A stretch of 64,000 nucleotides of DNA from Psammoneis japonica (taxonomy: Eukaryota), in contig QPGO01000173.1 in NCBI GenBank assembly GCA_008632985.1, positions 1-64,000 of the forward strand, in the 5' to 3' direction. Every line of letters starts with the position of its first letter. Position 1 is the first letter of the stretch. Shown in pieces: positions 3,964 through 57,692 of this stretch. A program made the translations under genes and the position numbers. The notes below the pieces were generated by a model. It searched no databases. It saw nothing but the letters and a program-made list of their open reading frames with translations, and was not told the DNA's origin.

Positions 3964-4000
<37 letters not shown>

Positions 4001-17495: not shown

Positions 17496-17515
17496 AGAGA
17501 GAGAGAGAGAGAGAG
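17494..17515 (+). repeat. (AG)n microsatellite
   Basis: Directly visible. Confidence 0.9.
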
Positions 17516-18175: not shown

Positions 18176-19543
18176 CTACAGTTCTCTTGAACGCGTCGTT
18201 CGTGGTTTCACCACCTTTTTCTTTTTCAGAGTCGAATCCTCGTCGTCGTCGTCCACTCGGAACAAGTCTTCCCATCCACGTTCCGGAATCATGTCTTGTT
18301 TTCCATACTGATCTTCAATTGCCAGCTTGCCTTGCGTCTCTTCATCATGATAAACATAATGGTGTTCGACACGTCGTGACACGGCCTTGGCACAGCGAAA
18401 TCCAATGTTTCCCGTAGTCGTTGTTCCGTGCAGCGTTGCTCTTGATCCACTCGTTGCAGCATGATTGTATTCGCCGGTGGATGTATCCACGTAGGACGCT
18501 CCCCGCACAATGCGGGCTTGATGCTTTCCACCCCGTTGCCATTCCCACACGTTTCCAATCAAATCATAAAAACCCATGGAATTGGGGGGATAATGCGTCA
18601 CGGGTGAGGTACCGCGCCACCCATCCTCAGCAGTGTTTTCAAACGGAAAAGCACCCTGCCACAAATTGGCATACTTGACAGCATCTTTTTCCTCATTGCC
18701 CCACCAATAGGTGGTTCTATTGTTTGGACCATAATTCTGACTACGCGAAGCAGCTTCGTATTCGCGTTCACCTGGAAGCCGTTTTCCGACCCAGGCACAA
18801 TACTCGGCGGCATCGCGGTGTGACACATGCACCACGGGATGGTTCTCACGATACTTGTAGGATGAGTTGGGTCCCTCGGGACGTCGCCAATACGCCCCAT
18901 CCACAGCCACCCAATGCTCAGCGTCCGGGTCCTTGTCGTGTGTGCCCTGCAGTTTGGAGGAAACAAAGGACTCTAGCACAAAGGACCATCCATAATGTTC
19001 CGCTTCTGTTTCATAGTGCGTACTTGCCACGAACTTTCCAAACTGCTTGTTGGTTACCAAGGTGGCATCTAAAAAGTAGGGCTCGACCGACACCACCTTT
19101 GTGGGTACTACGCCTCCGTCTAATTCATGAGTCTCGACATGACCATAGGGTTTGGGGCCATCGCCGGGATTTACTTTCCCATGACGGCGTTCCAACAACA
19201 CCTCTTCTCGTGTTTTTTCGATTCGTTCTGGAACATCATGATGATGTAACAACTCATGCTCTGAAATACCCAAATGACTGTCATGCAGACTGGAACCAAA
19301 AATATACTTTAGGGAATTGTCGTGGTTATGAAAGCCCACCCGGGTACCGTTCTCGTGCAAGCGGCCCATGTAAATCATGCCTTCATAGTCTTCGTCGTTG
19401 GGATCCAAGTGTGGAGCGACATTGGCTCCGATAATGCTTTCGTCGTCATTACTGGTATAAGAAGGATCATCAGAGAGACACCTATTAACAAAAAGAGAAA
19501 AGCACGACAGGAAACACAAGAGCCGCAGCGGCAGCAACGTCAT
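18176..19543 (-). CDS. Formylglycine-generating enzyme family protein, SUMF2 (pFGE)-like, ER luminal
   Basis: Signal peptide; HPVVHVSHRDAAEYCAW, RLPGEREYEAA, NLWQG.FP, GFYDLIGNVWEW, RGASYVD, NIGFRCA; lacks the SUMF1 catalytic Cys pair; ends ..SREL. Confidence 0.85.
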   Translation of the reverse strand: MTLLPLRLLCFLSCFSLFVNRCLSDDPSYTSNDDESIIGANVAPHLDPNDEDYEGMIYMGRLHENGTRVGFHNHDNSLKYIFGSSLHDSHLGISEHELLHHHDVPERIEKTREEVLLERRHGKVNPGDGPKPYGHVETHELDGGVVPTKVVSVEPYFLDATLVTNKQFGKFVASTHYETEAEHYGWSFVLESFVSSKLQGTHDKDPDAEHWVAVDGAYWRRPEGPNSSYKYRENHPVVHVSHRDAAEYCAWVGKRLPGEREYEAASRSQNYGPNNRTTYWWGNEEKDAVKYANLWQGAFPFENTAEDGWRGTSPVTHYPPNSMGFYDLIGNVWEWQRGGKHQARIVRGASYVDTSTGEYNHAATSGSRATLHGTTTTGNIGFRCAKAVSRRVEHHYVYHDEETQGKLAIEDQYGKQDMIPERGWEDLFRVDDDDEDSTLKKKKVVKPRTTRSREL

Positions 19544-19909
19544 TGTCGGTGTTTGATGATATGATTGCTATGTGTATGCATGCAGCAAATTAAATGAGAC
19601 AAAGCACGACGGCCTGAAACAGAATACGAAATTCAAACAAATGAATATGTTATTGAAACACCAAGGTATTAATTTCAATGAATGTTATAAATTCATGATG
19701 TTTTAAATAATTATAATGATTCTACGAAAAAATGCCGTAGCCACGCACGCAAGATTCTTTTCACAGCCATGAGGGGTTTTGTTTTCCGCCGCTGAAGCAC
19801 CTTCTCGACTCTCTCGTCAAACTCATGCAATTATGCCAAATGAGACCAACAAAGACGTAGACTGCCTCGCAAAACATCGAGCATTTGTTGCTGTTGTTGT
19901 GTGTTGGCG

Positions 19910-22900: not shown

Positions 22901-22943
22901 CGTTGCAACCTTGCTTTAATGACATTAGATAAAAACCGCGTGA
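19910..22943 (+). repeat. Segmental duplication, copy 1 (copy 2 at ~39146-42080)
   Basis: Shared start ccataaatgttcttgaa.atttaacgtgacgtcat and shared end aaaccgcgtgac. Confidence 0.9.
20651..22717 (+). CDS. GLUG-motif beta-helix protein with C-terminal Ig/HYR-like repeats, copy 1; intronless; in-frame upstream ATG at 20597 is cut off by TAA at 20648
   Basis: FTGSFDGGGHAIRGL, GLFG, repeated (V/A)GGLVG; two repeats ending PPPPYG.G...VTLT.TDS.G...SCTR.V.VR. Confidence 0.8.
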   Translation: MVLPTISGFEPNCGKPNTDPCEIATYNDLKGVEANGLDRNYVMINDIQATDDNFKPIGNEYEPLWYVDSYHDSSYYEEYEVEYATFTGSFDGGGHAIRGLSIFPEEDGSMGKGLFGGLSNADVRNLVLVDTKVGASDTSARFAGSLAGSVYGGTIHNVTSRNPQVNGDAVAGGLVGDVYQNCKISCCRVLDGKVNGNQAGGLAGWIDDVTIEECSVQNISAIEHEFGPGIHYHTFGGLVGQAHCWTVAKESVINNCFVAGDVAVFGSLEVGGLVGAASSTNISNSYFLGDVHAKASQVAGGLVGKAFRSSIKSSFATSKATIEKSLYDDDIFIGGFIGHDSSDDYELRLLEGNYCVMDPAVGDEYEAADTEVKVVESKEFFRDPTNLPHSGWDSNIWAQLHNNEYPYPTLQCQSSGQSNAPPVAVDFPLSRKIKLDSCKKLDATITFLSPEQDQTTNVKTWGVPAGMTATNKPGNAATVRLEMTPTANARYKLFFKAQDSKGAVTKKKLLVIVSGCKTAKAPRMRCKERDKKAISSSKCYVWTTIDDGSKSFDSKPVVLTQVPPPPYGVGVTDVTLTATDSEGRTNSCTRTVTVRQPRRGVCPVNKPPVVRCKNRDKRARPSPHCKVWTTIDFDSYDPNGDTLTHVLDPPPPYGIGNRTVTLTVTDSKGASSSCTRYVNVRPPSDGTC

Positions 22944-23549
22944 CCTGATAGCTTTCCACATTCTTTTGCCAAAGATGTAACATGTCCTTACACGAGCTGT
23001 CTTGAAGCTCAAGAAGCATGGCAGACGCTCGATTTTCTAATGGACAAAGTTGCGCACGACGTGTACAAACAGAATATACCGGCCTCCAACCAACTTGTGA
23101 AAGAACAAGAAAAGTTGGCTGGGTCCCTCCACCGGCTCAAACAAGCCATGGAATCACTCGAAAAATGCAACAGGCCTGTCCTGAATTTGTCGATGATGTG
23201 GGCAAGATCATGAGTGCCTGTGCAACAAAATTGGTTGACAACTTTGTCCAGGCATCCACAGACAGGGTTTTTTATGATGTTCTGCCAAGTCACCTGAGTG
23301 ACACTGGGTTGAAATCTCTTTCCAGGAAGGAAGCCACAATGTGGAAAAGCAGTGTCACTGAGTCTGAGAGAGCCATCTTGGCCATTGTGAAGCATCTGCG
23401 TGGAGTCATGCTCTGCGGCAGACAATGCAACTGGACCAACTCTCTGTTGTCAATTTGGGAAAGAAGAGAGGACCCCAGCACAAGAACAAAATGAATGTGC
23501 ATGACAAACTTTTGGCTTTTGACAGGGTCACTGTCTGCAACCCCAGCAG

Positions 23550-24190
23550 GTGGCCAGCATGTCTGCTGCCATGATCTCATGGTTGATGCAGCATTGCCTC
23601 CACCTGTTGTTGATGCATGTGTTGTTTCTGTCAAAGCTTCTTCATTGGGTCAGCCCAAAAGTTGACCACAAGGTTTTGGTGGCCTCCCCACTGTTTTTGT
23701 GCCATGTGCTGCACAGCTCAAGTTCTGCATTTTTGCACTCCAAAAAGTGAGACAAGTGGATCTGATTGTTCTTTGTTGGACTCGGGTTGGATCAGTTGTG
23801 TCTCAAGAACTGCATGACACCCACTGTGCCAGGGATCTGTTCTGTTGATGTGGACAGCCAATGACTTTGCAGCAGTCTGTGCAGCACCTCTGCAGGGTGA
23901 CTGACAGCATTTCTCAGTTGTGCATTGAGTGTGTGCTGGAAAATTCTTTTTCCTTTTTTGATGGTGCCAGTCTGGAGCACCTCTCCAAGGAAGAGCTCTC
24001 TGCAACCTTCTGGCTCAAAGGCTGGCAGGTTTGATGGGCATGGTTGTCAAGTTCTTGACTGGCTGGTTGCTTTTTGCACAAGTTGCAGCAGTGGTTGTGT
24101 GGCTGCTCTTCATTTGACTTTGATTTCTCAACTTTGCAGCTGCCTGTGAGAGCAGCACCAATCAACAAGAATGCAAAGTGGAGGTGACAT
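23550..24190 (+). repeat. Direct repeat C (copy C' at ~30365-30990)
   Basis: aagcttcttcattg..cag.ccaaaagttgaccacaaggtttt through gcagcaccaatcaacaagaatg....tggaggtgaca occurs in both places. Confidence 0.85.
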
Positions 24191-24324
24191 GCAAAAGAGC
24201 CATGATGCACACAGCACCATGCCAAGCCAAATTGTCAGGGGCCAGACCATTCCAAATCCTGCAATGAAATGAGGAGAGAAGCAACAACATGAGATGTGAA
24301 GTGATTGCACTCATCAACTCACCA

Positions 24325-24870
24325 CAGTTGCGGCTCATCGTGGACAGTGCAGGGGCAAGAGGTGTTGGCTCCACCACAGAACAATGCACCACAGCCAGTG
24401 TCAACTGAGTGATGCAACAAAGGAGCAGTGGATCAGCTGTCATGTGCAGGACTCTCACCACATCTGTGATGGAAGAGAACAAAACATGGCATCACAAGCA
24501 AGAAATGAAAGCAAAAGTGATGCAGTGACAAAATGAGTGACAGGGACAAGATTGTGTTGGAGAGCTGCTGCAAGAATGCATTGTTCAGACAGCACAAGTT
24601 TCTAAATGACAAGGCCCTCAACAATCACAAATGGAAGGGTTGCAAGGACAGTGCTGTCAGAGCTCATCATGCCCCGAGAAAAGGGAGCATGATTTTGGGA
24701 CACATCAAAGGATGAGGTGCAAAGGCAAACAACAAGAAAGAAGAACAAAGTCAGTGATGAACTGAACAAGAATTTCTTCCTAAGCAGCACAACTGATGGA
24801 GTGTGCTGAGTGTGCCACGGACAAGGAACTGGAAAAAAGCTGACACACGTGCATGCACAGGGTGCACAGA
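24325..24870 (+). repeat. Direct repeat A (copy A' at ~28985-29499), flanking the Penelope-like element
   Basis: gttgcggctcat.gtggacagtgcaggggcaa ... gacagggacaagattgtgttggagagctgctgcaagaatgca ... gcatgcacaggg..cacagat in both. Confidence 0.9.
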
Positions 24871-27800
24871 TGAGTTTTTTGGGGGTTGCACAAAACCCTA
24901 AAACCATTTTTTACACATGGTCAGCTCTTTTTAGATGTGTCTTCAAGCATCAACCCAATCCACCATTTGAAGCACCAAAGCCTGCCATTTTCTCCTCCTG
25001 AGTTTTTTGGGCCAAGACATCAATGTGCGCTTTGCATGCATCGGCATTTGTCTTCAATGGTCGCATCCAAGCTGCAATGGCAATGACCATTAAAAATGGC
25101 TGATCTCTTGACTTTTCAGCTCACAAGAAAAACATGCCAACCATGCTGATGAAGGTGAAAGCAAAAGCTCACATTGTCAAGCTTTGCAGGTTCAGCAAGA
25201 CTTTGACTGAGTCTTGTCAGTGCCAAAGGTGTTTGCACACTTGAAAACCTCAACAGCAGTGTGCACCCAAACAATGATGACAAGCACCAGTGCCTCCAAT
25301 CAAATCACACTGATGAGGGCCAATGAAGCTGCAGTGTCATGCACCATGACTTTCGTTGAACCCGATCCAACAACGACATGTTGACAAACTCAAACCATGC
25401 CAGGAGCTGATTGAGAAGCAGCCAGCAGGACTCAGGGGTGCATTCGAGTCCCTCACAACTCGAATGATTTTGCAATCTGCTCAGGTGCAATGGAGGGAGA
25501 AAAGTGTGCAAGCCTTTGCAGGTGAACAAGATCCTCCTTTTGTCCCACATGGCTCAAGGCTCAACATGGAACTCAAGCACAGCAACAAGCTTCAAGATGA
25601 TGCAGACACAAAAAAGCTTGTGAGCAAATTCAAAGACGTTGTGGCCAATTTCCAAGAAAAAGGTGTGAAGCTGATGCACAAAATGGCAGAATGCGAACTT
25701 GAATTTGCAAGGGCAGAAAGAATTTCTGCACTTGTCACTGCATGCATCGATCTCTTTGAACACCACATGTTCTGTTGCATTGCACATCAAAAAGGAGCAT
25801 CAAAGCATTCACACAGGCACTTGGGAGCACTCTGTCTGCTGGGGCATGCAAAGAACAAAATTGCAGACACCTTCTGTGTGACCCATCTCAGAGTCAAGCA
25901 AGATGTTGTCCCAGCTGAGATCATTTTGCAGATGCAATCAGATGTGGAGTTAACTGCTCCACCCACCAAAGACACCAACGAAACAGAGTCAAACCCACAC
26001 CGCTTCGCTGACAGCAAAACCAAGATCTGTGGCTGCATGGTCACAAGGCTTCAATGCAAGAACACTTTTGGAGAAGTCACCACACGATCACAAAATAAAA
26101 TCAACCACAAAAACAAAATTGCAAGAGCCAACGTGCAAGTCACCACCAGGTGGAACTCATGCAACAAGAAAGCAGCAGCTGAAGCTGCCACTGCCACCCT
26201 GGAAAATGAGCCATCAGCGCACCACCGGGCGCAGCCAAACAAGCTGTCAAAGCTCTTTAAAAACACAGCAGCAGTTGAAAAGGAAGCAAAAAATCTTCGC
26301 GAGCAACAGGAAAGCCCTGCCGGCCAAAAATGCCACTGCCGCAAAAACAGGAAATGGACCACCACAGAAAAAACAAAAAAAAATCAGGAGGCAAGCCTCG
26401 CACCAGAAAACAACAGAAAAAACAAGGAAACGGAAGAGGCAATCACAGCGCACAGTGCAAAGGTGGGGAAAAAGACTCCAGACATGCACCTGATTTCTGA
26501 ACTGCTGATTGAGACCACCGACCATCAAGCCAACAGCTTTTGCAAAAGGATCTGTGGGTTCATGCCAAACCCACCAAACAAAACCCCATGTGGCAAAACG
26601 CCATTGATGTGCTTGCTTGGCAATGCTGCTGCAGTGCAATGCTTCAACTGCCCAATCAATCTGGCCTTCCACAACCTTTGCACAAACCTCCAACCCCCTC
26701 CAGGCCTCATTGCTCTTCTTGGACTTGGCCACAAGTTTTGCATCAAATGGCCAAGATCACCATGTCACACAACAAAAATGGAGCTGAATGACTTTGTTGA
26801 TCAACTGGCCTTGCAGCCTCTGCCATTTCTCATCAATTCCATGGATGCCCCATCAGAAGCCACAACCACATCCCAGGCCTGTGCATCAAGTCAATGTGGG
26901 AGCCACCAAAAACAAAAGAAGGCAACTTGGAACTGCGCGCGCATGATGGACTTTGCCAACTGTGCTGAACAACTTTGCTGCCAAGCCACAGCAAAACAGC
27001 CTTGGCACAACTTGTTGCAACAACAGTGCCAGCTTTTTTGCTCTCTCAAAGAGGATGGCCAATTCATTGTTTGCTTGAGTGACAAAAATCTTAGACCCAT
27101 CATCATCAAATGGGCCACGTGCATCACTCGAGTCCTCCAAGACCATCTGCTCAACCAGAACAACTGCCAACGATTTTCACCTGCAAAAAAACCAACCTCC
27201 TGCAGGATGCAAAGCAACATCTTGTGGATGTGTGCAATGAAGCCAAGCCTCTCTTAAGCTCCACCAAGCAAAGTTGCTTCAAGCACAGCTTTGACCTGCA
27301 TCATTGCATCCCACAATTTTGCACCACAATCAAGGTCCAAAAAATTCCTTGGAAACAAGACCAATTGTCAGTTGTGTGGGCAGTTTTAACAAAATCTTCT
27401 CAAACTGGTTGGATGAAAAGATGAAGGAGCTCTTCACCCTTTCCCGCTGATGCATCTGTGATTCCCACCAAGTTCTCATGGATCTGCCAGCACTGGGAAC
27501 CTTGCCTCCAGGTGCAAAGCTCTTCACCATCAATGCCATCAGCATGCATTTGAACATTGACATGAGTCATGCCCTGGAAGTCTTCCAAGACTGGTTCAAC
27601 ACATGCCCAGACAAAATGCCAGCAGGCTTCTCAATGATTTTTCCCTCTCCACCTCAACTGTCATCATGACACGTGTCATTGTCCAGTTTGATGATGCATG
27701 CTGGCACCAAACCTGTGGAACTGCAATGGGCACCAGCACAGCATGCATGTGTGCAATGCTGCACAAAGCCCTGCATGAGCGCCAAGTGCTCAAGACATGC

Positions 27801-28988
27801 TTTGCCACCAACCTTCAGCACCATGGCTGCTTTGTTGACAACATCCTTGGTGCATGAACAGGAGACAATGAAATGACATGGACAGAATTCAAAAATGAAA
27901 TGAACAACTCTGCCCACCTTGTGCGGGAAACTTCCCCACTCTCAACCTCCAACACACATTTCTGGATCTTGAAATCCACATCGGAGCTGACAACAGAATC
28001 GTCACTCACACACACCAAAAACCAATGAATCTCTTTTTGCACATCCCATCTGCCTTGGCACATGCACTGGGAGCACTGAAGAGCATTGTGCACAGCAACC
28101 TCTGGCATTTCTGGACACAAAATTCCAATGTGGCAGACTGCATCACTGTTGCACAGAATTTTGTGAACCGTCCAGTCAAAAGAGGACACTGTCAAGCCAC
28201 CCTGTGTGAGATCTTTGTGCAAGCCATGCAGCACCTTGACAACCCCTCTCAACACCACCACTCCAATGCTGCTGCAAACCCAAGCTCTGCATTGTTTTTT
28301 CACAGTGAATTTCACCCACAAGGGAAACCCCATGTCTCCATCTGATGAGTCCATGACAAAACACTGCTGCAGGGAGTGCAACACACTGGATTTGACCACT
28401 TTGTGCTTGCCTGCTCACAACCAAAAAATTTGAGAGATGCTTCAATGCAAACTCAAATGCAGGAACCAGAAGGGAAGCATGCATCTAAATGCACAGAGCA
28501 CTCAGATCCGGAGCTCTGAGTTGGTGACTCCATCACAATGACACACCTCCAGCAAAAAACTCAAATGGGCCACCTTCCTTGCTTTCAGCACTTCGGCTTG
28601 CACCCATTTGAGTTTTTTGGGGGTTGCACAAAACCCCAAAACCATTTTTTACATGCAGCCAGCTCTTTTTAGATGTGTTTTTGAGTGTCAACCCAATCCA
28701 CCATTGGAAGCACCAAAGCCCACCATTTTCTCCTCCAGAGTTTTTGGGCCAAGACATCAATGCGTGCGCTTTGTGTGCATTGGCATTTTTCAATGGTCAC
28801 ATCCAAGCTGCAATGGCAACGACCATCAAAAATGGCCAATCTCAACATTTTTGGCTCACAAGAAAAACATGCCAACCACACTGATGAAGCAAAAGCTCAC
28901 ATTGTTAAGCTTTGCAGCTTTGGCAAGACTTTGTCAGAGCCTTGTCAGTGCCAAAGGCATTTGCACACTCAAAAACCTTGGCAGCGGT
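24871..28988 (+). mobile_element. Degenerate Penelope-like retroelement: pseudo-LTR B (24871-25260), broken RT ORF (~25270-28520), pseudo-LTR B' (28609-28988)
   Basis: PLE/TERT-like RT motifs: SDKNL.P, KLFTINAISMHLNID (cf. LFTxDxxSMYTNI), W.Q..GTAMGT..ACMCA.LH, CFVDNI (cf. RY/FIDDI), PMNLFLHIP...AH..G.LKS, ACSQPKNLRD; ~390-bp direct terminal repeats. Confidence 0.8.
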
Positions 28989-31900
28989 TGCGGCTCATTG
29001 TGGACAGTGCAGGGGCAATGGGTGTTGGCTCCACCATGTGTCAACTGTGATGCAACAAAGGAGCAGTTGATCAGCTGTCATGTGTGGGATTCTCACCACA
29101 TCTGTGATGGGGAAGAACAAGATGACATCACAAGCAAGAAATGAAAGCAAAAGTGATGCAGTGACAAAATGAATGACAGGGACAAGATTGTGTTGGAGAG
29201 CTGCTGCAAGAATGCAGTGTTCAGACAGCACAAGTTTCTAAATGACAAGGCCCTCAACAATCACACAATGGAAGGGTTGGAAGGACCATGCTGCCAGAGC
29301 TCAGCATGCCCCAAGAAAAGGGAGCATGATTTTGGGGCACATCAAAGGATGAGGTGCAAAGGCAAACAACAAGAAAGAAGAACAGTGTCAGTGATGAGCT
29401 GAACAAAAGTTTTTCCTGAGCAGCACAAACAAACAGAGTGTGCCATGAACAGGGAACTGGAAAAGAGCTGACACACATGCATGCACAGGGCACACAGATC
29501 ATGAAAAGAAGAAACCACAAGTGCACAAAACAATGCCCAGATGCCATCTCTGGAAGACATGCCAGAGGGGCGGAACAACATGATGGCCCAAAGCTGTTTC
29601 ACCATCATGCAAATCCTGCCACTCATGGTCAGAAAGACGATGTGGAAGCATTGGCTCAAGAGTTGAGACATTGCTTGAACAAGTTGGCATCTGCAAGTGA
29701 CAAGGCATTTGGTCTGCCAGTGTTGGAGAACAGCTGGAACAAGTGGGCACGCATGCACGGCAGCAAAACAAAGGAAGAGTTGAAGGAATTAAAAAGGAAA
29801 GGAGGAGGAACAGACCATGGAAACATTGATGGAGCACTCACAAAACTTGCAACAGCATCAGAAATGTTCATGCAGTGACACAAAAAGAAGCCAAGTCATG
29901 GACCTGCATTTGTCAATGCAGCACACTGGCATGGATGCCCACATCAAATGTGGTGGTGGAACCCAAGCTGCAATGAACCCAAAACCTGTGTGGAAAACAA
30001 AGGAGGGGCTTGCATTGCTCCATTTGGCCCAACCTGCAAATTGCCAACCCCTCAGATGCAGGCCACACAAAGTGCCGCAGCTGTGATGATTTCCTTGTTT
30101 TCACTGTCGCAAGGTGGAAATTTGACACTCTGCTGTGGGCTCATTTTCATCATTTGCACTGGTTGTTGTGCTGGGCATTTGCTTCTGTGCTTCTTTGTCA
30201 GAATGTGAGGTGTGGTGTGGTCTAGTCTCAGACAATGATGGTCTCTTAGACATGTGGTGCCATGCTGCATGGTGGGAAAGCCACCTGCACACATCTCACC
30301 TGGAGCTGGAACAAGCCCAGCAGTCAGAAAAACAAGTGGGCAACTGCAACTTTGTTGAGGCCTGACAGGTGGCCAGCGCTGTTTGCAGCCATCTCAGTCC
30401 ATGCAGGAGTGACTCCACTTGTTGGTGCATGAAGCTTCTTCATTGAGCCAGTCCAAAAGTTGACCACAAGGTTTTGCCCCCCCCCCCCCACTGTTTTTAC
30501 ACAGCGTGCTCTGCGGCACAAGTTCTTCTGCAGTTTTTGCACCAAAAGGTGAGACAAGCAGTGGATCTGAGATTTGCTGTTGGACTTGCTTGAATTGGGC
30601 CAGCTGGATTTCAACTGCGCAACACCCACTGTGCCAGACAATCAACAGCCAATGACTTTGCACAACAGCAGTCTGTGCAGCACCTGGGGTGACTGACAGC
30701 ACTTCTCAGCCATGCACCATTGTGCCAGAAAATTCTTTTTCCTGCTTTGGTGGTGCCAGTCTGGAGCACCTCTTCAAGGAAGAGCTCCGCAACCTGCTGA
30801 CTGAAAGTCTGCAAAGGAGGCAACCAGGTTGACAGGCATGGTTGTCAAGTTCTTGACTGGCTGGTTTCTTTTTGTGCACAAGTTGCAGCAGTGGTGAGCA
30901 GCTGTTCTTTTTTCAACTTTGATTTCTCAACTTAGCAGCTGCCTGCAAAAGCAGCACCAATCAACAAGAATGTGAAATGGAGGTGACAAGTGTTGAGAAG
31001 TGAGCAACAAAAAACTCTGCACCTCTTGCAAAGTCAACATGCAAGGTGGCCAAGCCAGATCTGCAAAATGTGTCACTGGCCACACAGGTTGGTTCAGATG
31101 CAGCTAATTCAGTGTTTTTGTTTGTGTGTTGGTTGCTTTTGACTGGGGGAAACAATGGGGTGAAGCAAGTGGCCCAACACAACAAGGGTGCAATAACTTT
31201 GGGCCACTTGAAAACTTGAAAATTGTGGCAATCACCCTCAAGCCAGCCTGCCACACTGGTGTAAAAAAAGGGTGGTGCCTGCACATCAGAGGGGGGTTCC
31301 ATGCAGGTTTTTGCACCAATCAGCTGGGTTTCCCTTCCTCAAATGCAGGGTGACCCACATTTGACACAATGAATCTGCATTTTTTCCATGCAACCCTGCT
31401 TGATTTCCACAGTGCCTGCAGGAATCACAATCCTGCAGGATGGCAAAAACTTCAGTTGAATCTTCCTGGATTTAATTTGTGTTCTTCTGCAGAGGAAACA
31501 GCAGACACATTTTTCTGAGTTCTTCAAGTGGACATCCCCCCACATGTTCTTGGCACAGGATGTGCTGCACAAACCACAAGCTGGTGTCCATGGGTGATGC
31601 TTTCTCTTTCTTCTTTGTTTGTGCCATTTGCTGCCTCTGTTTTTCCCGTGGCAATGCCGTTGTTCAATGACAGCAAAAATTTCAACCTGCAGCTCCAACA
31701 ACGTCAATGTCCCACTCAACGCGCAAGTTTGTTTGTTCCCAAAATTTTGTTTTGTTCAGTTGGAAAGGGAAACGGAACTTTCTTGTTTGCAACCTTTCCC
31801 TTTTGGTGCCATCGTTGTTTCATTTTGTGGATGTGGAGCAACACTTCTCCACACACCCATTTGTTGTTTTCAATGCATTGTGGGTTGCTGTTTTTGTCTC

Positions 31901-34812
31901 CTTCTGGCAGCTCAAAGGCACACAGGGGATGCCGCCGCCACTCTCATCTGTTGAAAAAGCAGCATCAGAATGCAGTCAAGAGCAGAAAAGGGAAGTCATC
32001 ATGTTGAGATCTGTCTTTGTGTTTTTGTGATTCTGCAGTGCCACTTCACGGGTGGGGCTGGTGCATTGGAGATGTCTGTCATGCTGCCAGGGTCCATCCC
32101 GTGGCCCCAGTGCTTGCAAGGGGTGCAGCCAGTTGTCCTGTGCTTTTTGACGGCTTGCCTGACATTGCTGTCAGGGTTCATCATCCCGTGCCCTCCAATT
32201 CCATGGGGGGTGCAGTGATGTCAGTGGATGCACCCTTCAACAAACATGTTGGGGTGCACCCATGCTCCTCCTCACTTTGGGGGTGCAGCCACTGGATCCA
32301 ACTTTTTGGGGTTCTTGCAAGCTGGAAAGCATGCTGTCAGGGTTCATCCCATGACTCCCACCTTTGATGGGGGTGCACCACAGCTCTTCAAGGATTTAAT
32401 TTTGTTTGCATGGATGATCGTCTTGATGCATCATCCCACACTTTTGGAGATGGCATCAACAATGTCAGTGGCTTTGTTTCTGCAGACCACTTTGCCAGCC
32501 CTCCCATGGTCCATCCATCCCACACCCCCCCTCTTTCTTGTGGATGGAACCTCTCTGTGAACCTCACCCAAGAACTTTCCCCTGCAAGAATCCCACTGAG
32601 TCCCTCTGCATGTCTTCATCTTCCACTGCTGAGGCCAGGAGAAAAATGGGCGGCAATCAGGTCAGAGACAACATGGGTGGTGGATGAAACAACGACAACA
32701 TTGCACAACAGTTGTTCTGAAATTGACCAAATCTCATGCAGTTGTCAGTGCACAAAAGTGGACACTGGTGCACCAGGGAAAGCCATTGTTTTCACTGGTG
32801 CAGTGCAGTCTTTTTGGCAGAGACCACCACAATGAATTCATGGTGTGATGGTGGGGCAGATGGCTTGAAAGAACAGAGTGTGCACACGCACAATGGATGT
32901 GTGACACCAACAGACAATCAGGCAAAGTCACAAAATCTTTGGACTCTTTGGACCAATGAGAACTCACATCAGAAATTTGAACAAAAAGGGCACAATGCAT
33001 GAGTGCATTGGAGTGGGCACCAGTTGGCCCGGCACGTTTGCAGACAATCTCAGAACTGGCACTTCATTTGCAACTCAGATCTGGTCAGTTGGTTTTCAAC
33101 TGGTGCATGATGTCCAGCTGTGGCTGCTGGAGACCTGCCATGTTGAAAATGTGGGCAGCTGGATGATGGCCTTGCTGTCATCCATGCACTGCCTCTGCTC
33201 CAGGGCCCTGCTCAGAAGGGGTGACTGACAGGCTCCTTGACCACCCATCAAGGCAAAAAAATGTTTTTCCCATTTTGTTGCCAGTCTGGAGCATTTTTTC
33301 AATGAGCTCTGCACCCTGCCGGCCAAAATTGTGAGCTGGAGGGCACCAAGTTCAGCTGGTGCAACTGTTGAGCTCTTGACTGGTTGTTTCATTTTTGCAC
33401 AAGTTGCCACAGTCCTGTGAGTTTTTTTTCAACTTCTTTCAACGCTTTGCAGCTGTGAAAGCAGTGCCAACAAACAAAAATGTGAAGTGGAGGCAAGCAG
33501 AGGCAAGAACATGTGGTGTCAAGAAGGAAGTGGCAAAACATTGTGTGCTTCTTGCAGAAATTGACTTGTTGCACTCAAGCAATTTTTCTGTCTTGTTGCG
33601 TGACACAATGTCTGTGCAGAAGGCAGCCAAACCAGATCTGGTGCACACTGACATGTCATGCAGGGCTCATGTGTGCATCAGCATGGTGTGGTCTGACCCG
33701 GGCTCTGCACCCACCTCCCTGCCAGGGACACAAGTGTCCAGCTGCTCCTCAAGCCCCACACAAGCATTTGCAGGTGCGCAGCCCAGCGCGCACAATCAGG
33801 CAGCAGGTGACAACAAAGAAGTGGCACTTGTTGCACGTGTGCTGAGCACTGCGCAAGCAGGAGGAAGGGAGAGCATGTGCATCAGAAGATGCTGCATCTT
33901 GCATGCAAACATGAAGTGTTGGCCAGTTGCACGGGGACTGCTGCTGGGCCAAATGTTGCTCCAAGAGCTTGTGAGCGAAGTGCAGCCAAACAAGTGTGTG
34001 TGGCTGCTGCCACTCAATTTGCGCTGCTTGAGACACCCCATCTGACTGGATGATTGCGTCCCATCCCCCACTTCTTGCTTTGCATCAACTTTGTACAAAA
34101 ATGCCACAGGTTTGCCAACGCTGCTGAGAAGCTCCTCTCTTTTTCTTCTCAAACATGTGAAAAGTTTTTCAACATGTGGCTGTTTTGCTTTCCACCACCT
34201 TGGCTTCTTCCTCGACTCCATCATCAACCTCATGCGATTTGCGTGCCAAATGAGATCCACAAAAAAGTGCAATCAACAAAAGAGAGTCAAGTGGCAGCTT
34301 TCTCACAAAACAACGAGCAGTTGCTGTCGTTCTGTTGTTGGCGCCCTTGCTGCCGGCGTGCGGGAATGGACACCGAGCACAACTGGACACTGAAAAAGGT
34401 CATTTTTGGCGTTTGACCTCCGTGCAAGTCATCCGAGAGCACGCGCCGAAAACAACTTACAAAACCACGCGAAAAAAAAAAAAAAGAACAATCTCGGATC
34501 GACGCAAAAGCTGCTCTCATTGCTGCAACAAACAACATGACTGAAACAGATGGTGATGCTGCCATCAGATGGTCTGCCAAAGACAAATCACTTGAAACTC
34601 AGCTTTGTAATGCCGACATCGCACAAGCCACCCGTCAACAGCAAGTCATTTTGAGAGATGCTGGGCAAATTCTCGACGACAGAAACAGCACTGCACGTGA
34701 CTTGAAAAAAGGCCAGCAACTGTCTGAAAGTTGTCAGTGAAACACTCTCTGTTGTTCAACAAGCTGCTGTTGAATCAAATGCAATGGTTGCAAAAGAATC
34801 CATTGAAGGCTC

Positions 34813-37800
34813 GTGGCTTCGGAGAAAGTTGCCCAATCACATGCTTTGCACACCGCCAATCTTGAGCCAACGTCTCTGCCAAGTCCCAACAACATGGAAG
34901 ACAAAGAAAACATCCCACCACCAGCAGCTTCCAGAAAGGCCAATGAGCTCATTGAGCTGGAGCGACTTGCCTTGCGCATCAAGACGCCACCCACTGGTGA
35001 TCGCAAACTCTCGAAAAAACGAAAAGGGGACACGAAAAATTCAAATGAGTCAACTCAAAAGAAGAAGACAAATGCTGCAGCATTCATGCACCCCGAACCA
35101 AAAGATCAGCTTGAGCACACCAAACAAGAAGTTTGTGACATGACTCAAGGAAGGAACGCAAAAGAGCGAGCGGGAGTTGTCAATGACATGATGCAGAAGA
35201 AACGTGCGCCACATGTCAGTGACAAGAGTGTGTGCAAGGTGCTGCGAAAAATTCGAGAAGGGAAACCAATCAATGAGGCGTGGGGAGCAAGGGGTCGCAC
35301 TCCAATCATGACTGAGAACGAACTCGTCGAGGCAACTGGAAACGTGGTTGAGAGCAAAGGACAAACAGTCGGGTTAGAGGACATCAAGAAAATGTTAAAT
35401 GGGAAGAAGCAGGATGACATGAACCATCAAGGCCTTGCAGCAGACAATGAGTGCACAGTTCACCGAACAACGGCCAGTCGACACAGGACTCTTGCTGTGG
35501 CAACGAATCCCAAAACATCCATTGCCGACAGTGTCACACAGAAGACCGAAGCCCAACGCACAGCTGAGCAATCATTGATTGGAGCCATGTCACTGGCTCT
35601 CGTCATTGGACAAACTCACTTTGCTGTCGGACACGACAGACATTTTCGAAACGCCACATTCCCAAAGCTTGGAGAGGGTTCAAAGCTCTTTCTTCAACTT
35701 GTTGAGAAGGCATGGGGAGTTGAGGTGCACCCTGTTAAACCCATGCACATCATGGGATTGGATGACACAACGATGCACGTGTTTGCGGGAACAAAAAACA
35801 ACAAACGTGAGTGGCGTTTGGTCTCTGCGTCTTCGAACTGTGATGCCGGTACTCACGCAAAATGCAAGAGTGGGGAAGACAAGTCAATGCGAGGCATGCA
35901 AGCAAAAGACACGCACTGCTTTTCCGCGTGTGGGCAGATGGCACCCACAATGGTTGGCTTCTTGAAACTCACAGATCGAGAGCTTCCCAAAGGTCACTCA
36001 TCAGATGAGTGCAACAATGCGGATGGCACATGTCTGATTCAGGTCCGAGGTCTGTGTGCTGGTGGAGACACAAACCTCAATGCGGGACGCGGCTGCGTCC
36101 TGTTCATGCGTGACAATGTCACCGACCGAGAGTCCGAACGAATGGTCATCTACCGAAGGCACATTTTCCAACCATTTCTTGAGGCTCAAAGAGAAATCAG
36201 CAATGAATGGGCACAGGGACAAGCCGTTCCTGAAACTCTGCGATCTCTTCTGTGGTTCGACGGCGACGCGGGTCAAATGAAGGCGCACACGAATGATCCT
36301 GAAATTGAGAATCTCGATTTGCAACAGAAGCTTGCCAAGAACAAAAGCAACCCTTCTCGCACTGGATCTGAAGCGGGTTGTGATCTCAGCAAGGTTTTTC
36401 CCACAGCCAAGTCACTGCAACCTTTGCTGACGGCAGAGGCATTCGACCCAACTGTCCACCCCAACAAGGCGGAAATCTTGCGGTGTCTCGAAGAAAGCCC
36501 AGTCACTCTCGGGCGNNNNNNNNNNNNNNNNNNNNNNNNNNNNNNNNNNNNNNNNNNNNNNNNNNNNNNNNNNNNNNNNNNNNNNNNNNNNNNNNNNNNN
36601 NNNNNNNNNNNNNNNNNNNNNNNNNNNNNNNNNNNNNNNNNNNNNNNNNNNNNNNNNNNNNNNNNNNNNNNNNNNNNNNNNNNNNNNNNNNNNNNNNNNN
36701 NNNNNNNNNNNNNNNNNNNNNNNNNNNNNNNNNNNNNNNNNNNNNNNNNNNNNNNNNNNNNNNNNNNNNNNNNNNNNNNNNNNNNNNNNNNNNNNNNNNN
36801 NNNNNNNNNNNNNNNNNNNNNNNNNNNNNNNNNNNNNNNNNNNNNNNNNNNNNNNNNNNNNNNNNNNNNNNNNNNNNNNNNNNNNNNNNNNNNNNNNNNN
36901 NNNNNNNNNNNNNNNNNNNNNNNNNNNNNNNNNNNNNNNNNNNNNNNNNNNNNNNNNNNNNNNNNNNNNNNNNNNNNNNNNNNNNNNNNNNNNNNNNNNN
37001 NNNNNNNNNNNNNNNTGTCACGCGTCCGAGGGCGAAACGGCGAAGGGCTTGCGAATGCGAGTCTTGACGACTTCAATGCCATGACGGCTCCAAGGCTGCA
37101 GGCATTTGTCCATGTGCGAAAATGGGAGATGGCTAAAAAGACCTGCTCCTTCAAGTTCCCTGACAAGGGGAAGCTCGAAGATGCGAAGACAGGGGAAGAA
37201 AACCTGACAAGAGTTGCTTGGTCGTTGCGTGACCGCGACGTGACACACAAAAGACAGGAGGCTCCGCTCGAAAGCGAAGATGCGCCAAGTGCTCCAGTCG
37301 AAAACTCACCTGAAGCTACACATGTTTTGAAGAATGTGAAATGGCGTGAACTGGTTGCAAATCATGTTGCAGCAGCTGAAGACATCGTCATTGCTGATGA
37401 CAACATGATGCAACGGAGCAACCAACTGGTCGGTTTGTTGTCGTCGCGTCTTGAACGTTACAAGCGCAATCGTTTGAACAATTGCAATGGATGTCGTCAC
37501 CACGTGGTCTGGCAATGGTTTCACAACAACTTAGTCCGGATGGCTTCCATCATGATCCATCCAAGCACGTCATCGACGATCTAGACTGTGCTGACGACGA
37601 CACTGCCCTCCTCAACCTGGACACCATGCCTGTTGTAGACGAAAGCAACAAACATCAGGAGGGTGTGCATGTTCATAGAGACAAGAATCGAGGAAAACGT
37701 GCCGTTTGTGCTGGGAAAGTTTCCGGTGTGACGCGAAACTTCGGAGTTCGGAACAACGATCACGAGAAGGGTGCGTTGCTGCGCACTGTGTCGCACCAGG

Positions 37801-38147
37801 GGAACAAGTTCTGCTCGTCACACCCTAGCAAGCAAGCCCCAAAAGAGTTGACAGCAGGGCGCAAAGGGTGTTTTGAGAATCTAGAGCAAGTTGTTGCATT
37901 TGGTTTTGACAGGGAAAAACCAGGAACGGTTGAAGCACTTGCCAAAGAAGGCGACGATGGCATTTTCATCTGGTCTCCAGAAATCTTGACACATCTTCAG
38001 AATTCCAATGCTTTGGAGTCACTAACTGAAAAAAAGATTTCAATGGTTTGCCATCTTGCAGAAGCTGCCAATGATCTCGCAATGGCGGAGAGCGACAATG
38101 TGTCAGAAAGTGCAGGTTTCGAGTCGTTTGGACTTCTCAATGCGTGA
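34813..38147 (+). mobile_element. Degenerate pogo/Tigger-like (DDE_1) transposase ORF with long C-terminal extension; spans the gap; frameshift near 37560
   Basis: GR.P.MT.E HTH-like start; MGLDDTT (cf. NxDET), THCFSACGQMAP (cf. TvxxCxxAxGxxLP), LLWFDGD (cf. LLILDG), NPSRTGSEAGCDLSKVF (cf. PxxTxxxQPxDxxxF). Confidence 0.55.
36516..37015. other. Assembly gap (500 N)
   Basis: Run of N. Confidence 1.
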
Positions 38148-39145
38148 ATCCCAAAACTTGCCATTTGCGGGAATGTGGCAGCAATTCACGCTGTACATTT
38201 AGCCAGGCCGTTCACCAACATGCCATTGTGTTGAAAACGCAGGCTCTTGCGCATTTGAACATTGTTCTTGAATCGCCGAGGTGCTTGTTTAGTGCCTGCT
38301 GCGTGGCAACCAAGGCAGAACAGAAATTGAGCAACATGAAAAAGGCATGCAAAAATGTCACTCCGGTTGAACATCAACAGAGTGATTCACAGTGCTCACC
38401 CACGAGTCTGAACAAACGTGTGAAGCCATTTCAATGGCCATTCAAGCAAATCATCGTTCACACCATCAACTCATCCGACTCAGTCTCACTTTTTGTGCCG
38501 CAATGACGTGACAAACTCATGTGTCGGTAGAGCGGCTTCAAGATGACGGTTGTCAACGCAACAAAATCGTCAATTCCTCATTCAATGTGCATGTGATCGT
38601 TATGAGTTGTATCCGTGGCCAAAACAATTGTGTTGGATGTATGCTCAATGCGTTTTTGACTGCCCCCCCAACTCCAGATTTGACCCTGACACGTGCAACC
38701 CAAAACGGCATGCCAGGGTCCGAAAATCAAACCTGCTGAAACAACATCACGGCAAAAGCAACGTGATAGCACCAACAATAGATTAGAAATGCCAAACGTA
38801 TGAACGAATGTTGAAGAGAGGCATCGAGTCCACGACATCAAATCATCTCGCAGAAACATGATCGAGTCACGAGTTCGAGCAGCAAATGTGCTCACCTCGC
38901 GAAACAACATTTTACCCTCCATTTCAACCAAACCAAGATGTAAGCAAGTCCTTTATAAGACGAGTGATCATGTCAATGCAAAAAATGAGTGGAAATTATC
39001 GTAAGACTAGCACAACAGCAGTATCATCAACGATCATCGTGTTTTGTGGTGTTTTAGTGTCCATCTGCGAACACTTTCCTGGTATTGCTTCCACGTGGAT
39101 GTACGCGAGTCCCGTCAGTGTCCATATTTTCTCGCCGGTAGCTTG

Positions 39146-42080
39146 CCATAAATGTTCTTGAACATTTAACGTGACGTCATGTTCGAAACAACGAAGACAT
39201 CAAAAAATAATGAGAACCGAGGATAGAGAGATCAGTCTCACCGCACGCAGACCGCAGCGAATCATCGCAAGACACAATGAAAAACAAAAGAACTGAACTG
39301 TTGCTGTGAACGAAAAAACAAGAATGTGAGTCATTGCTCAGTCGAGGCTGCTATGATCCACGGAAAAAAAGTCCCATCGCTGATGCTAGTCGTTACTTTT
39401 AGAAGGTTGTGAATGTTTACGTAGGGCCCTGAGATTGTGGTTGCGTGAACGACGCGTCTCTTTACCAAAATAAAGAGCGCCTTCACAAAACTCGCTGAAA
39501 GCAGCTCAATGTAATTGGGCCCTTTTGTGTGTTCTTTTTCGTTGTTGTTATCGTCACGTGCTCCTTTATGCGTTCGATCCACCGGAGAGGTGATAATGTG
39601 ATGGACGGCGGGGGTTCGGGTTCTTTTTGCCCCCAAATACCCTGTCAAATAACTGTATTGATTCGGTGTTTTGTTGTTCTTTTATCGATCGCAGTTGTCA
39701 TAACGACACTCACGAGACAAAGCGCCTTTCTAAACTTCCGTTGTATTCTGTGTGGGGTGCCCTTTAAAGCGAGGAGCAAGAGAGAAAGCAAAAGAACTCA
39801 TGGTGACGGGCAACAGGGAGAATTTCCGTGTACGCACCATTACAGGGAGCTTAATGGTGCTCCCCACGATCTTGGGTTTTTTTTTACCAAATTGTGGAAA
39901 GCCTAATACAGATGCCTGCGAGATTGCTACTTACAATGATCTCAAGGGTGTTGAGGCCAATGGACTGGACAGAAACTATGTGATGGTCAACGGCATTCAA
40001 GCCACTGACGACAATTTCAAGCCCATAGGCAGTAGTGGTGATCCCTACAGTTATGAGGAATACGATATGCCGTTCACTGGATCGTTTGATGGTGGCGGGC
40101 ATGCTATTCGCGGGTTGTCCATCTTTCTAGGGGAAGATCACGATTGTGACAGCACCGGCTCGGGTTTGTTTGGTGGTGTTACTGGTGACGCCGATATCCG
40201 CAATCTCATCCTCGATGACACCAAAGTTGAATATTGTGGCCACTATCGCAACTATGCCGGATCACTTGCTGGATATGTGGATGGTGGCACGATCCATAAT
40301 GTCACCGCAAGAAATTCACAAGTCGAAGGGGATGTCTATGCTGGTGGGCTTGTTGGACGGGTAGATGGAGGTAATTTCTCCTGCTGCCAGGTTCTTGGTG
40401 GGAAAGTATATGGGGATGCAGCTGGTGGTCTTGCGGGATGGATTAAAAATGTTACCATCAAAGAATGCAGTGTGCAAAACATCTCTCTGAAAGATGGGTA
40501 TGAACCGTGGTATTACAGGTCGTTTGGCGGTTTGGTTGGCCGAGCCGACTTCTCAGTCATCAACAATTGCTTTGTGGCTGGTGATGTCACTGTTTTGAGT
40601 AATTTACCTGTGGGTGGCCTTGTCGGGGAAGCATGGGCGACGAACATATCGAAGAGCTATTTTCTAGGTGATGTGAAAGGAGGTTATACCGCTGGTGGTC
40701 TCGTTGGTATGGCTTACAAATGGTCGATTAAGAGTAGCTTTGCCACAGGTAAGGCCACAATAGAGAAGAGCTTGTATGACGATGATATTTTCATAGGTGG
40801 ATTTATTGGTCGTGACAGCTCCGATGACTACGAGTTGCGACTAGAGGGTAACTACTGCGTATGGACCCTGCAGTTGGTGGCGAGTATGAGGCAGCCGACA
40901 CCGAAGTTAAAGTCGTGGAAAGCAAGGAATTCTTTCGTGATCCCACTAATCTGCCACACTCCGGCTGGGACAGCAACATTTGGGCCCAGCTACACAACAA
41001 TGAATACCCCTATCCAACCCTTCAGTGCCAATCTTCTGGTCAGAGCAACGCTCCCCCAGTTGCCGTTGATTTCCCTTTGTCAGGAAAGATCAAACTGGAC
41101 TCGTGCAAAAAACTTGATGCCACGATCACCTTTCTGAGCCCGGAGCAAGATCAAACTACTAACGTCAAAACTTGGGGAGTCCCCGCTGGAATGACTGCGA
41201 CAAACAAACCTGGAAATGCAGCGACTGTTCGTCTCGAAATGACACCGACGGCGAATGCGCGGTACAAGCTGTTCTTCAAGGCCCAAGACAGCAAGGGAGC
41301 TGTTACCAAGAAGAAGCTACTTGTCATAGTGTCTGGCTGCAAGACGGCAAAGGCACCAAGAATGCGTTGCAAGGAACGAGATAAAAAAGCCATATCGTCT
41401 TCAAAGTGCTATGTTTGGACTACGATTGATGACGGGTCCAAATCTTTTGACTCCAAGCCTGTTGTCTTGACGCAAGTCCCTCCTCCGCCCTACGGCGTCG
41501 GTGTTACGGATGTAACTCTCACAGCTACGGACAGTGAAGGCCGCACAAATTCCTGTACGAGGACTGTAACGGTTCGTCAACCTCGGCGTGGCGTCTGTCC
41601 TGTAAACAAGCCACCAGTTGTGCGCTGCAAAAATAGGGATAAAAGAGCCCGCCCTTCCCCACTTTGCAAGGTGTGGACGACGATTGACTTCGATTCGTAT
41701 GATCCCAACGGTGATACATTGACGCGCGTCCTGGACCCTCCGCCTCCCTATGGCATTGGAAATAGAACAGTGACACTCACAGTCACAGATAGCAAAGGGG
41801 CATCCTCATCGTGCACAAGATATGTCAACGTTCGACCTCCTAGCGATGGTACTTGCTAAACCGGGTGCAAAAACCTATAGAAACCAAGGGAGTCAGCGAC
41901 GTTTAGGAAAGAACAAGACCTGTTCGTATTTGGTCCTTCAGTTTTACCTGTCAACATTTATTTTGCACGGTTTTGACACTTGTTGGATGTAGTCTTGCGT
42001 GAGTTTAGTTCCCATAGTGAACCAAGTAGGTGATGGACCGTTGCAACCTTGCTATAATGACATTAGACAAACCGCGTGAC
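39146..42080 (+). repeat. Segmental duplication, copy 2 of 19910-22943
   Basis: Alignable by eye over the upstream region, CDS and 3' flank. Confidence 0.9.
39800..41859 (+). pseudogene. GLUG/HYR-like protein copy 2 with 1-bp deletion frameshift at ~40860 (pseudogene or consensus error)
   Basis: Copy 1 tgc gtg atg gac vs copy 2 tgc gt- atg gac; ORFs 39752..41137 and 40861..41859 together match copy 1. Confidence 0.75.
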
Positions 42081-50130: not shown

Positions 50131-50229
50131 TTGGGTCCGTTGGGCCCGGTGGGCCTCGCACGCAGTTGGGGACGTCTCCAGCCAGCCAGCCGCTGGCTGA
50201 AAAAATTCTGTCCGTCAGTGCGTTAGGGG

Positions 50230-57596: not shown

Positions 57597-57692
57597 ATCC
57601 ACTCTCCATCGTGAGTCTATGCGGAGACCTTCGTGTGCGTGCGAGCGCGCGCGAAGAACGGTCGACGCATAGACTCACGATGGAGAGTGGAT
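57597..57692. repeat. Perfect 27-bp inverted repeat forming a ~96-nt hairpin
   Basis: atccactctccatcgtgagtctatgcg (57597-57623) / cgcatagactcacgatggagagtggat (57666-57692). Confidence 0.95.

Follow-up and report, generated by a model that had tools for sequence, protein, structure and literature searches.

Depletion of TpA in mobile-element relics of the diatom Psammoneis japonica: evidence for TpA-directed hypermutation of integrated DNA

Why should the dinucleotide 5'-TA-3' (TpA) be nearly missing from several kilobases of a diatom contig and yet be present at ordinary frequency in the genes directly beside them? The question is raised by the first 64,000 nucleotides of contig QPGO01000173.1 of Psammoneis japonica (assembly GCA_008632985.1, forward strand; this whole stretch is called the window in the following), in which a cluster of degenerate mobile elements, one of them with a reverse transcriptase (RT) gene, is bracketed by two copies of a GLUG-motif gene. 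A sequence-only reading of the window had proposed that its transposons were hypermutated from TpA to TpG or CpA, in a reversed form of the fungal repeat-induced point mutation (RIP). Targeted mutation of invading sequences is known from RIP and from animal deaminases that act on replication intermediates; for mutation of chromosomal A:T pairs at TpA there is a single, very recent report, from the chlorarachniophyte alga Bigelowiella natans and without an identified enzyme. A footprint of this kind in diatom transposons would mean that the process is peculiar neither to one lineage nor to viral inserts.

Loss of TpA in bounded blocks

In a dinucleotide scan of 1-kb segments, the ratio of observed to expected TpA (o/e) was 0.00–0.07 in every segment of 23001–36000 and 0.16–0.23 at 37001–39000, compared with 0.45–0.78 in the gene-bearing remainder of the window. 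The near-absence of TpA between TA-normal flanks, as described by the sequence-only reading, was thus borne out by the scan as well as by the TpA counts given below; its extent of about 15 kb applies to the main block, whereas two additional blocks (2700–4940 and 50740–53560) had been overlooked. The tracts and controls referred to in the following are:

2700–4940: TpA-erased block 1, a repeat or mobile-element relic, unclassified (CG o/e 0.22, TG 2.03, CA 1.75)
20009–22944, forward strand: left copy of the GLUG-motif gene, adjoining the main block, TA-normal control (TpA o/e 0.55–0.67)
23080–36515: main block of TpA erasure, in which degenerate mobile elements are clustered (TG and CA o/e 1.65–1.99; pyrimidine-purine steps (YpR) 236–242 per kb)
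34000–36515, forward strand: TpA erased and CpG intact, with an open reading frame (ORF, 34807–36513) running into the gap (TpA o/e 0.04–0.07, CG 0.66–0.76)
36516–37015: assembly gap, 500 N
37016–38760: graded right edge with intermediate TpA loss and normal CpG
39272–42080, forward strand: right copy of the GLUG-motif gene, TA-normal control (TpA o/e 0.55–0.78)
49700–50740: intermediate zone beside block 3, with sparse TpA (o/e 0.38 at 49001–50000 and 0.15 at 50001–51000)
50740–53560: TpA-erased block 3, a relic, unclassified (CG o/e 0.34, TG 1.80, CA 1.72)

Expected numbers of TpA were taken from the window's own background (1542 TpA per 36,503 bases, i.e. 42.2 per kb). On this basis the main block contained 36 TpA instead of 568, block 1 two instead of 95, block 3 three instead of 119, and the right edge at 37016–38600 still 14 instead of 67 (TpA o/e 0.14, CG o/e 0.92); the deficit in the four tracts had Poisson p values from 4e-15 to 1e-189. 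From the fully depleted blocks 94–98% of the TpA is gone (o/e 0.02–0.06), and the loss is confined to the blocks: The main block is sharply bounded on its left, where TpA is dense until 23077 and is next met at 23273 and 24603, further borders lie at 2699/3032 and 53560, and the right border of the main block is graded (37016–38760).

The missing TpA reappears as TpG and CpA, which are about doubled in the blocks (o/e 1.65–2.03) and reach 1.3–2.3 in the 13 consecutive 1-kb segments of 23001–36000, beside TpA values of 0.00–0.07. The total of YpR steps (TA, CG, TG and CA together) is 236–250 per kb in the blocks compared with 239–242 per kb in the background; in consequence, the pyrimidine-purine steps were interconverted by transitions alone and none were lost. 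As a side observation, GpC is raised (o/e 1.16–1.30 versus 0.98–1.09) and ApT lowered (0.78–0.85 versus 0.91–0.96) within 23080–36515, shifts that are probably by-products of the changes GTA to GCA, TAC to TGC, ATA to ACA and TAT to TGT.

A degenerate reverse transcriptase gene and the direction of change

The direction of the change was read from the RT element within the main block, which is arranged as follows:

24327–25250, forward strand: repeat segments A (24327–24871) and B (24871–25250), upstream of the RT element
25350–28501, forward strand: degenerate retroelement ORF, with the RT-family match at 26616–28501 (family hidden Markov model, HMM)
28609–29499, forward strand: downstream repeat copies B' and A'

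The repeats surround the RT copy in swapped order (24327–24871 matches 28987–29499, and 24871–25250 matches 28609–28978); a further repeat pair lies at 23547–24189 and 30366–30988. With the read-through translation of 25350–28499 as query, HMMER retrieved 432 protein relatives (E <= 0.001), mostly of 620–700 residues, and an HMM for which 72 relatives of full length were used matched the window at 26616–28501 only. The match is broken into five pieces over three frames, i.e. by four frameshifts, and contains four in-frame stops, all of them TGA. The AlphaFold model of one relative (P0241, predicted local distance difference test 90.9) had telomerase RT as its top structural match (3du5_A, E 3.4e-9), followed by group II intron RTs, retron RTs and Prp8. 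According to this model, the gene at 26616–28501 is predicted to encode a reverse transcriptase of TERT-like fold, a likeness of fold and not of phylogeny.

The ORFs of the blocks, 20 of them in the main block, had no Pfam family, and read-through translations gave nothing useful in Pfam at E up to 10; among the relatives, none of 12 matched Pfam at E 0.01, RVT_1 was recognized weakly in two of 40, and the ORFs of 10 of their loci contained no Pfam family except one weak Pol_BBD match. A profile search of the PDB sequences returned nothing meaningful. The sequence-only reading had called the element Penelope-like: The TERT-like fold agrees with this, whereas membership is not established, as no GIY-YIG domain was found in 40 relatives at E <= 10 or in the ORFs of 10 loci, and no hammerhead ribozyme or any other Rfam family was found in the window and 13 loci at gathering thresholds, which a mutated copy could escape. 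Endonuclease-less Penelope-like clades exist. The family itself, which lacks annotation in Pfam, comprises at least 587 metagenome stretches beside the 432 proteins, and in the loci examined the metagenome elements consist of an ORF1 of about 735–813 amino acids overlapping an ORF2 of about 850–920 amino acids.

The relatives of the RT are not poor in TpA. Their metagenome loci (the best 80 kept from two search patterns, one of which required Tyr, so that intact copies are favored) were TA-normal in 79 of 79 cases, with TpA o/e 0.56–1.13 and a mean of 0.82; the 72 full-length proteins contain 4.1% Tyr on average, and among the 150 relatives listed less than 1% Tyr was seen only in two short fragments. 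The 1050-codon RT frame of the window, in contrast, contains no Tyr at all, together with 5.6% Cys and 5.3% His (clean ORFs of the window: Cys 1.6%, His 3.1%, Tyr 3.7%). At the 15 columns with Tyr in no fewer than 60% of the 72 intact relatives (four of them conserved to 99–100%), the window reads Cys (TGY) eight times, His (CAY) five times, Phe (TTT) twice and Tyr never, while 112 of 171 other conserved columns are kept (Fisher p 4e-7). Among these, His (7/7), Phe (10/12), Asn (8/10) and Lys (4/5) persisted to a large extent; Arg was kept in three of 10 columns, and five of the others read Trp, Cys, His, His and Gln, as conversion of CGN to TGN or CAN predicts. The individual codons named in the sequence-only reading do fall on conserved Tyr columns (CAT at 27547, TGT at 27750, CAC at 27762, CAC at 28040 and TGC at 28412), and its Arg-to-Gln change is found at a conserved Arg column (CAA at 28418); two adjacent TGA codons at 28343/28346, regarded there as former Arg-Arg, are plausible as such only, since the aligned relatives carry R/Q/H at the one and A/R/Q/T/K at the other position.

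The changes in the RT gene were polarized by parsimony over 186 conserved columns, with TpA as first choice in ambiguous cases (the 13 Tyr cases are unambiguous):

Kept: 112 columns
TpA to TpG/CpA: 18 columns
CpG to TpG/CpA: 14 columns
Other G to A or C to T: 11 columns
Other A to G or T to C: 1 column
Transversions: 15 columns
Two or more changes needed: 15 columns

Changes from A:T to G:C thus occurred 18 times at TpA and once elsewhere; the signature is specific for TpA and runs from TpA to TpG or CpA. Two findings that would have spoken against the earlier proposal, i.e. intact copies that are TA-poor from the outset and a spectrum without excess of TA to TG/CA, were therefore not obtained, and its central claim, a second A-to-G process at TpA on either strand and apart from the deamination of 5-methylcytosine (5mC), is supported by the relatives as well as by the polarized spectrum.

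The change from TpA to TpG or CpA never creates a stop codon: As far as stops are concerned, its effects are the loss of TAA and TAG or the conversion of TAA to TGA. The four TGA stops of the RT were not made by it and are of other origin. The same rule accounts for the many long ORFs of the main block and for the long open, nearly Tyr-less ORF 34807–36513 (569 codons, one Tyr, CpG intact). This second element has a single relative, P0391, which shares 28% identity, is without a Pfam family and contains 3.4% Tyr; at its 15 Tyr positions the window reads His three times, Cys once and Tyr once. With so distant a homologue, its contribution to the polarity is weaker.

Both strands of integrated DNA, CpG decay and flanking bases

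Since TG and CA outcomes are both present within the single RT gene, both strands were hit. The repeat copies offer a view on the time of the event. Between B and B' a few sites are TA or CG in one copy and CA or TG in the other, and 11 of the 26 difference events of this pair are adjacent double changes between CA and TG, one of them as a CATG/TGCA pair. In pair C plain CA/TG swaps are the commonest difference class (6 of 67 events), in pair A they make up 2 of 31 events, and between the two TA-normal copies of the GLUG-motif gene they do not rank among the 14 commonest dinucleotide differences. Swaps of this type would be expected where one ancestral TA or CG was converted independently in the two copies. 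Their occurrence between copies places the mutation in integrated DNA, after the repeats existed; in consequence, the main cause cannot have been an editing of sense RNA prior to its reverse transcription.

Most of the TpA-depleted DNA also appears to have lost CpG by ordinary deamination of 5mC (CpG o/e 0.07–0.33 at 23001–34000). At 34001–38600, however, CpG o/e is 0.66–0.96 while TpA is 0.04–0.23, and no 1-kb segment was found with loss of CpG and without loss of TpA. Loss of TpA where CpG is intact demonstrates that the two are separate processes; the former was apparently faster and complete while CpG was still intact.

Is the process triggered by duplication, as its likening to RIP implies? 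The 2.9-kb duplicate formed by the flanking GLUG-motif genes is 84–89% identical and TA-normal. The untouched duplicate argues against a simple RIP-type duplication trigger, and the "repeat-induced" part of the earlier idea could not be substantiated.

The flanking bases were analyzed at the 41 TpA that survived in the fully depleted blocks, with expectations from the background TpA contexts (R, purine; Y, pyrimidine):

YTAR: 26 observed, 7.1 expected
RTAR/YTAY: 13 observed, 21.8 expected
RTAY: 2 observed, 12.1 expected

The classes depart from the background with a chi-square p of 3.5e-14. Among the products, RCAR and YTGY exceed the background by 27.9 per kb compared with 11.5 per kb for RTGR and YCAY (2x2 p 4e-5), and in the CpG-intact part RTAR is reduced by 9.8 per kb while RCAR has gained 12.5 and RTGR only 2.3. 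Provisionally, these contexts point to T-A-Y as favored site if the adenine is edited, or R-T-A if the thymine is edited, with YTAR being spared. RTA as preferred context on the strand of the edited adenine had been considered as well and was dropped, as the tetranucleotide excess indicated TAY instead. The tRNA site of TadA is U33-A34-C35, which the presumed TAY preference resembles.

The composition of the blocks is not a product of scaffolding. In a public sequencing run, 80% of the sampled words of 19001–29000 were present; its contigs span 16600–36500 at a word depth of about 55, equal in flanks and block, and one of them bridges the left border (22678–23853) with 0 differences. These contigs, which may stem from the sample of the assembly, rule out a scaffolding error and do not count as independent biology. 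Most of the main block is at single-copy word depth today, whereas depth rises to 450–550 at 34528–35855 (about 55 elsewhere), and the element there is therefore a multi-copy family with roughly 8–10 similar copies in the run. At 25195–26257, 23 of 1059 letters are different in the contig of the run, including an adjacent pair CA to TG at 25565–25566; this contig could represent a diverged allele or a paralogue, and most other run contigs differ by 0–0.8%.

The surroundings of the blocks are genic. Flanking ORFs encode proteins usual for eukaryotes, namely an amino-acid transporter, an Asp/Asn hydroxylase, an FGE-sulfatase, a GCV-T and an XAP5 protein, the last with named matches from diatoms only (55–63% identity; Attheya, Fistulifera, Cyclotella, Ditylum, Cylindrotheca, Chaetoceros). 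The XAP5 matches confirm the diatom origin of the window that the sequence-only reading had assumed. The two GLUG-motif gene copies, both TA-normal and with motifs of bacterial type, bracket the transposon cluster and are 84.5% identical by blastn and 88.7% over aligned columns; their best protein matches are bacterial (25–37% identity), and the gene could be of bacterial origin and have been duplicated in the diatom afterwards. ORF 48457–50214 on the reverse strand (585 codons, rich in Ser, Pro and Leu) lies in a stretch of strong GC skew (0.37) and intermediate TpA loss and includes a Cys/His-rich stretch that presumably recalls the zinc knuckles of non-LTR (long terminal repeat) retrotransposons. 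Short tandem duplications of 83–87% identity and one 96-base inverted self-match (199–532, 58884–59283, 62975–63163 and 57597–57692) are all located in TA-normal DNA.

Candidate explanations and comparison with known systems

The blocks are most probably relics of mobile elements that were hit after integration by TpA hypermutation, in an enzyme-driven defence of the kind indicated in B. natans. The proposed course would be as follows: Mobile elements, one of them with an RT of TERT-like fold, would insert into a diatom chromosome; after integration, the A:T pair of 5'-TA-3' would be converted to G:C on either strand, yielding TpG or CpA, and the mutation would run almost to saturation, halt at the element borders and spare the adjacent genes. 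The encoded proteins would be wrecked by missense, every Tyr becoming Cys or His and ATA, TTA, CTA and GTA codons being altered too, with long, open, dead ORFs as the result. We infer a defence aimed at silenced foreign DNA. The leading candidate for its agent, put forward tentatively, is a DNA adenine deaminase akin to TadA/ADAT2, with inosine as product at TpA and TAY as preferred site. More doubtful, and possible rather than probable, is the wider idea that diatoms and chlorarachniophytes, perhaps algae of the SAR assemblage (stramenopiles, alveolates, rhizarians) widely, share a dedicated DNA adenine deaminase defence derived from the tRNA editor ADAT2/TadA; the enzyme would be directed to transposons and viral inserts under silencing and would rewrite TpA, with TAY as best site, on both strands until none is left. 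Such a system would precede CpG decay and be independent of it, and would mirror fungal RIP, except that genes would be inactivated without stops.

Several points weigh against this interpretation. The polarity was derived from relatives of 30–46% identity and from one element instead of a family consensus of the same genome; the sample of relatives' loci favors intact copies, as mentioned; and the other blocks are unclassified. The supporting run consists of contigs of one sample, which may be the sample of the assembly itself. The flank preference takes host genes as proxy for the ancestral composition, and at the 13 Tyr codons TG:CA is 4:1 after Y and 4:4 after R, which is the predicted direction but lacks significance (p 0.56). 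Furthermore, TpA is self-complementary, whereby deamination of adenine and modification of thymine are indistinguishable by sequence.

Among the alternatives, those without mutation of host-resident DNA fare worst. Systematic miscalls at modified bases of heterochromatin, or another artefact of sequencing or assembly, might be suspected as the only run in support may be identical with the data of the assembly and the scaffold contains a gap of 500 N; the reproduction of the sequence, left border included, by contigs at full depth, the single clean call per site (miscalling of a self-complementary step would produce a mixture of TG and CA reads), and the frameshifts, CpG decay and repeat divergence of real old relics make this scarcely credible. 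An intrinsic TA-poverty of the elements, be it a codon or dinucleotide habit or a TA-poor donor, would be in keeping with the long ORF 34807–36513, which could be taken for a working TA-free gene, and with its 8–10 times higher word depth, i.e. the existence of similar copies. It is nevertheless very improbable: Tyr is missing at all 15 conserved columns while the relatives' loci are TA-normal throughout, several unrelated sequences, coding and non-coding, are TA-poor up to a common border, CA/TG swaps separate the repeat copies, and the open ORF is explained by the no-stop rule. A-to-I editing of retroelement transcripts by an ADAR-like enzyme before reverse transcription has the attraction that ADARs prefer U as 5' neighbor and that hyperedited retroelements are known in animals; to our knowledge, however, ADARs are restricted to animals. 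Edited sense RNA would yield TA to TG only, whereas five of the 13 Tyr codons became CAY; within one insertion, the repeat copies acquired CA/TG swaps that postdate integration, and the depletion extends in equal measure to non-coding parts and to a second element unrelated to the first. RNA editing, which is also discussed for retroelements in the B. natans preprint (bioRxiv 10.64898/2026.01.13.699255), can thus hardly be the cause.

Two further alternatives accept a mutation of integrated DNA and differ in its agent. A regional bias of silenced chromatin without dedicated enzyme, by translesion synthesis of Pol-eta type or by error-prone or mismatch repair, would fit the coincidence of the blocks with CpG decay, a hint of methylation and silencing, and Pol eta makes A-to-G errors at WA motifs (W, A or T). 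The sequence-only reading had listed this polymerase among its candidates, for which it is a poor one: The loss is strictly at TpA and not at WA, AAY and AAR codons are kept, and only one of 19 polarized A:T to G:C changes lies outside TpA. Moreover, a TpA loss of 94–98%, also in DNA with intact CpG, needs a rate far above that of other changes, like the 1000-fold excess in B. natans, and we regard such a bias as unlikely. The same low probability is given to a modification of thymine at TpA (for example of 5-hydroxymethyluracil, 5hmU, or base J type, introduced by a TET/JBP-like oxygenase), after which mispairs or flawed repair would turn T into C. Because of the self-complementarity of TpA, T to C on one strand equals A to G on the other, the flank preference is equally readable as RTA to RCA, and dinoflagellate DNA reportedly carries 5hmU preferentially at TpA; 5hmU pairs with A, however, and is not known to us as strongly miscoding. 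The preferred explanation therefore remains an enzyme-driven hypermutation, with an adenine deaminase as tentative agent.

If this explanation holds, it has practical implications. As some diatoms are genetically tractable models, a search for the enzyme would become feasible, and a natural editor of adenine in double-stranded DNA with a defined context would be of interest for base-editing work. Repeat annotation in diatoms is biased, as relics lose Tyr codons and TAA/TAG stops, display long false ORFs and escape Pfam (0 matches in the present case). The footprint itself, i.e. few TpA, many TG and CA and an unchanged YpR total, is a simple genome-wide marker of foreign DNA in algae.

How does the diatom footprint relate to described systems? 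The closest is that of B. natans. In mutation-accumulation lines, 231 of 302 nuclear mutations fell in one giant-virus and one virophage insert, 230 of these 231 were A to G or T to C, all at TpA, and the insert rates were about 1000-fold over the background, in some lines only (bioRxiv 10.64898/2026.01.13.699255). The genome contained 124 clusters of TpA-poor, CpA+TpG-rich intervals, RT and DDE domains were enriched in the TpA-poor genes, and an ADAT2 homologue was named as candidate enzyme (Mettrop et al., bioRxiv 10.64898/2026.01.13.699255). All three diatom blocks pass the 1-kb thresholds of that preprint (Rho TpA <= 0.43, Rho CpA+TpG >= 1.52; bioRxiv 10.64898/2026.01.13.699255). Both cases share the change of A:T to G:C almost only at TpA, to TpG or CpA depending on the strand, and the confinement to foreign DNA with local borders, host genes being spared in the diatom. 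They differ in the host (a rhizarian there, a stramenopile here), in the target (giant-virus and virophage inserts versus transposon relics) and in the degree (TpA o/e 0.45 in the viral region versus 0.02–0.06); what the diatom adds is a loss that coincides along the sequence with CpG decay, together with probable flank preferences, and new mutations and rates were measured in B. natans, whereas the diatom offers the footprint alone.

The sequence-only reading knew of no described pathway of this kind in diatoms. For diatoms this stands, as no report of TpA hypermutation was found in the literature searched, with subscription journals outside its coverage, while the same signature has since appeared in the chlorarachniophyte preprint. 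The checked passages of five diatom papers (PMC4504042, PMC9998398, PMC2806351, PMC6604790, PMC11492738) contain no mention of it; one of them, a Phaeodactylum mutation-accumulation study, gives CG, CC and TG as mutable contexts in the passages concerned, and the word TpA is absent from its text. As far as these searches reach, the present case is the first instance of TpA-directed hypermutation in a diatom, and a remarkably clean one.

With RIP of Neurospora and other fungi the process shares dense transitions on both strands of integrated mobile DNA that are bounded by the element and kill its genes. In RIP, C is replaced by T, mostly at CpA, whereby TpA and many stops are created; in the diatom, TpA is destroyed, CpA and TpG are gained by changes from A:T to G:C, no stops arise, and a dependence on duplication was not seen. 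The 5mC-driven decay of CpG concerns the same blocks and left 14 polarized changes in the RT, including those from Arg to Cys, Trp, His and Gln, and yet it cannot remove TpA and did not accompany its loss at 34001–38600. APOBEC3 (C to U on cDNA) and ADAR (A to I on double-stranded RNA), which hypermutate retroelements and viruses in animals, likewise represent deaminases that serve to ward off mobile nucleic acids and edit in a dinucleotide context; in contrast to the mutation of integrated double-stranded DNA on both strands, they act strand-specifically on replication intermediates. TadA, ADAT2-3 and the TadA-derived adenine base editors, finally, deaminate A after U or T (in tRNA-Arg at the site mentioned above), comparable to the T-A-Y context suggested here; their natural substrate is tRNA, and activity on DNA is known for engineered TadA. 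According to the preprint, ADAT2 of amphioxus and of trypanosomes has been reported to be active on DNA as well (as cited in bioRxiv 10.64898/2026.01.13.699255).

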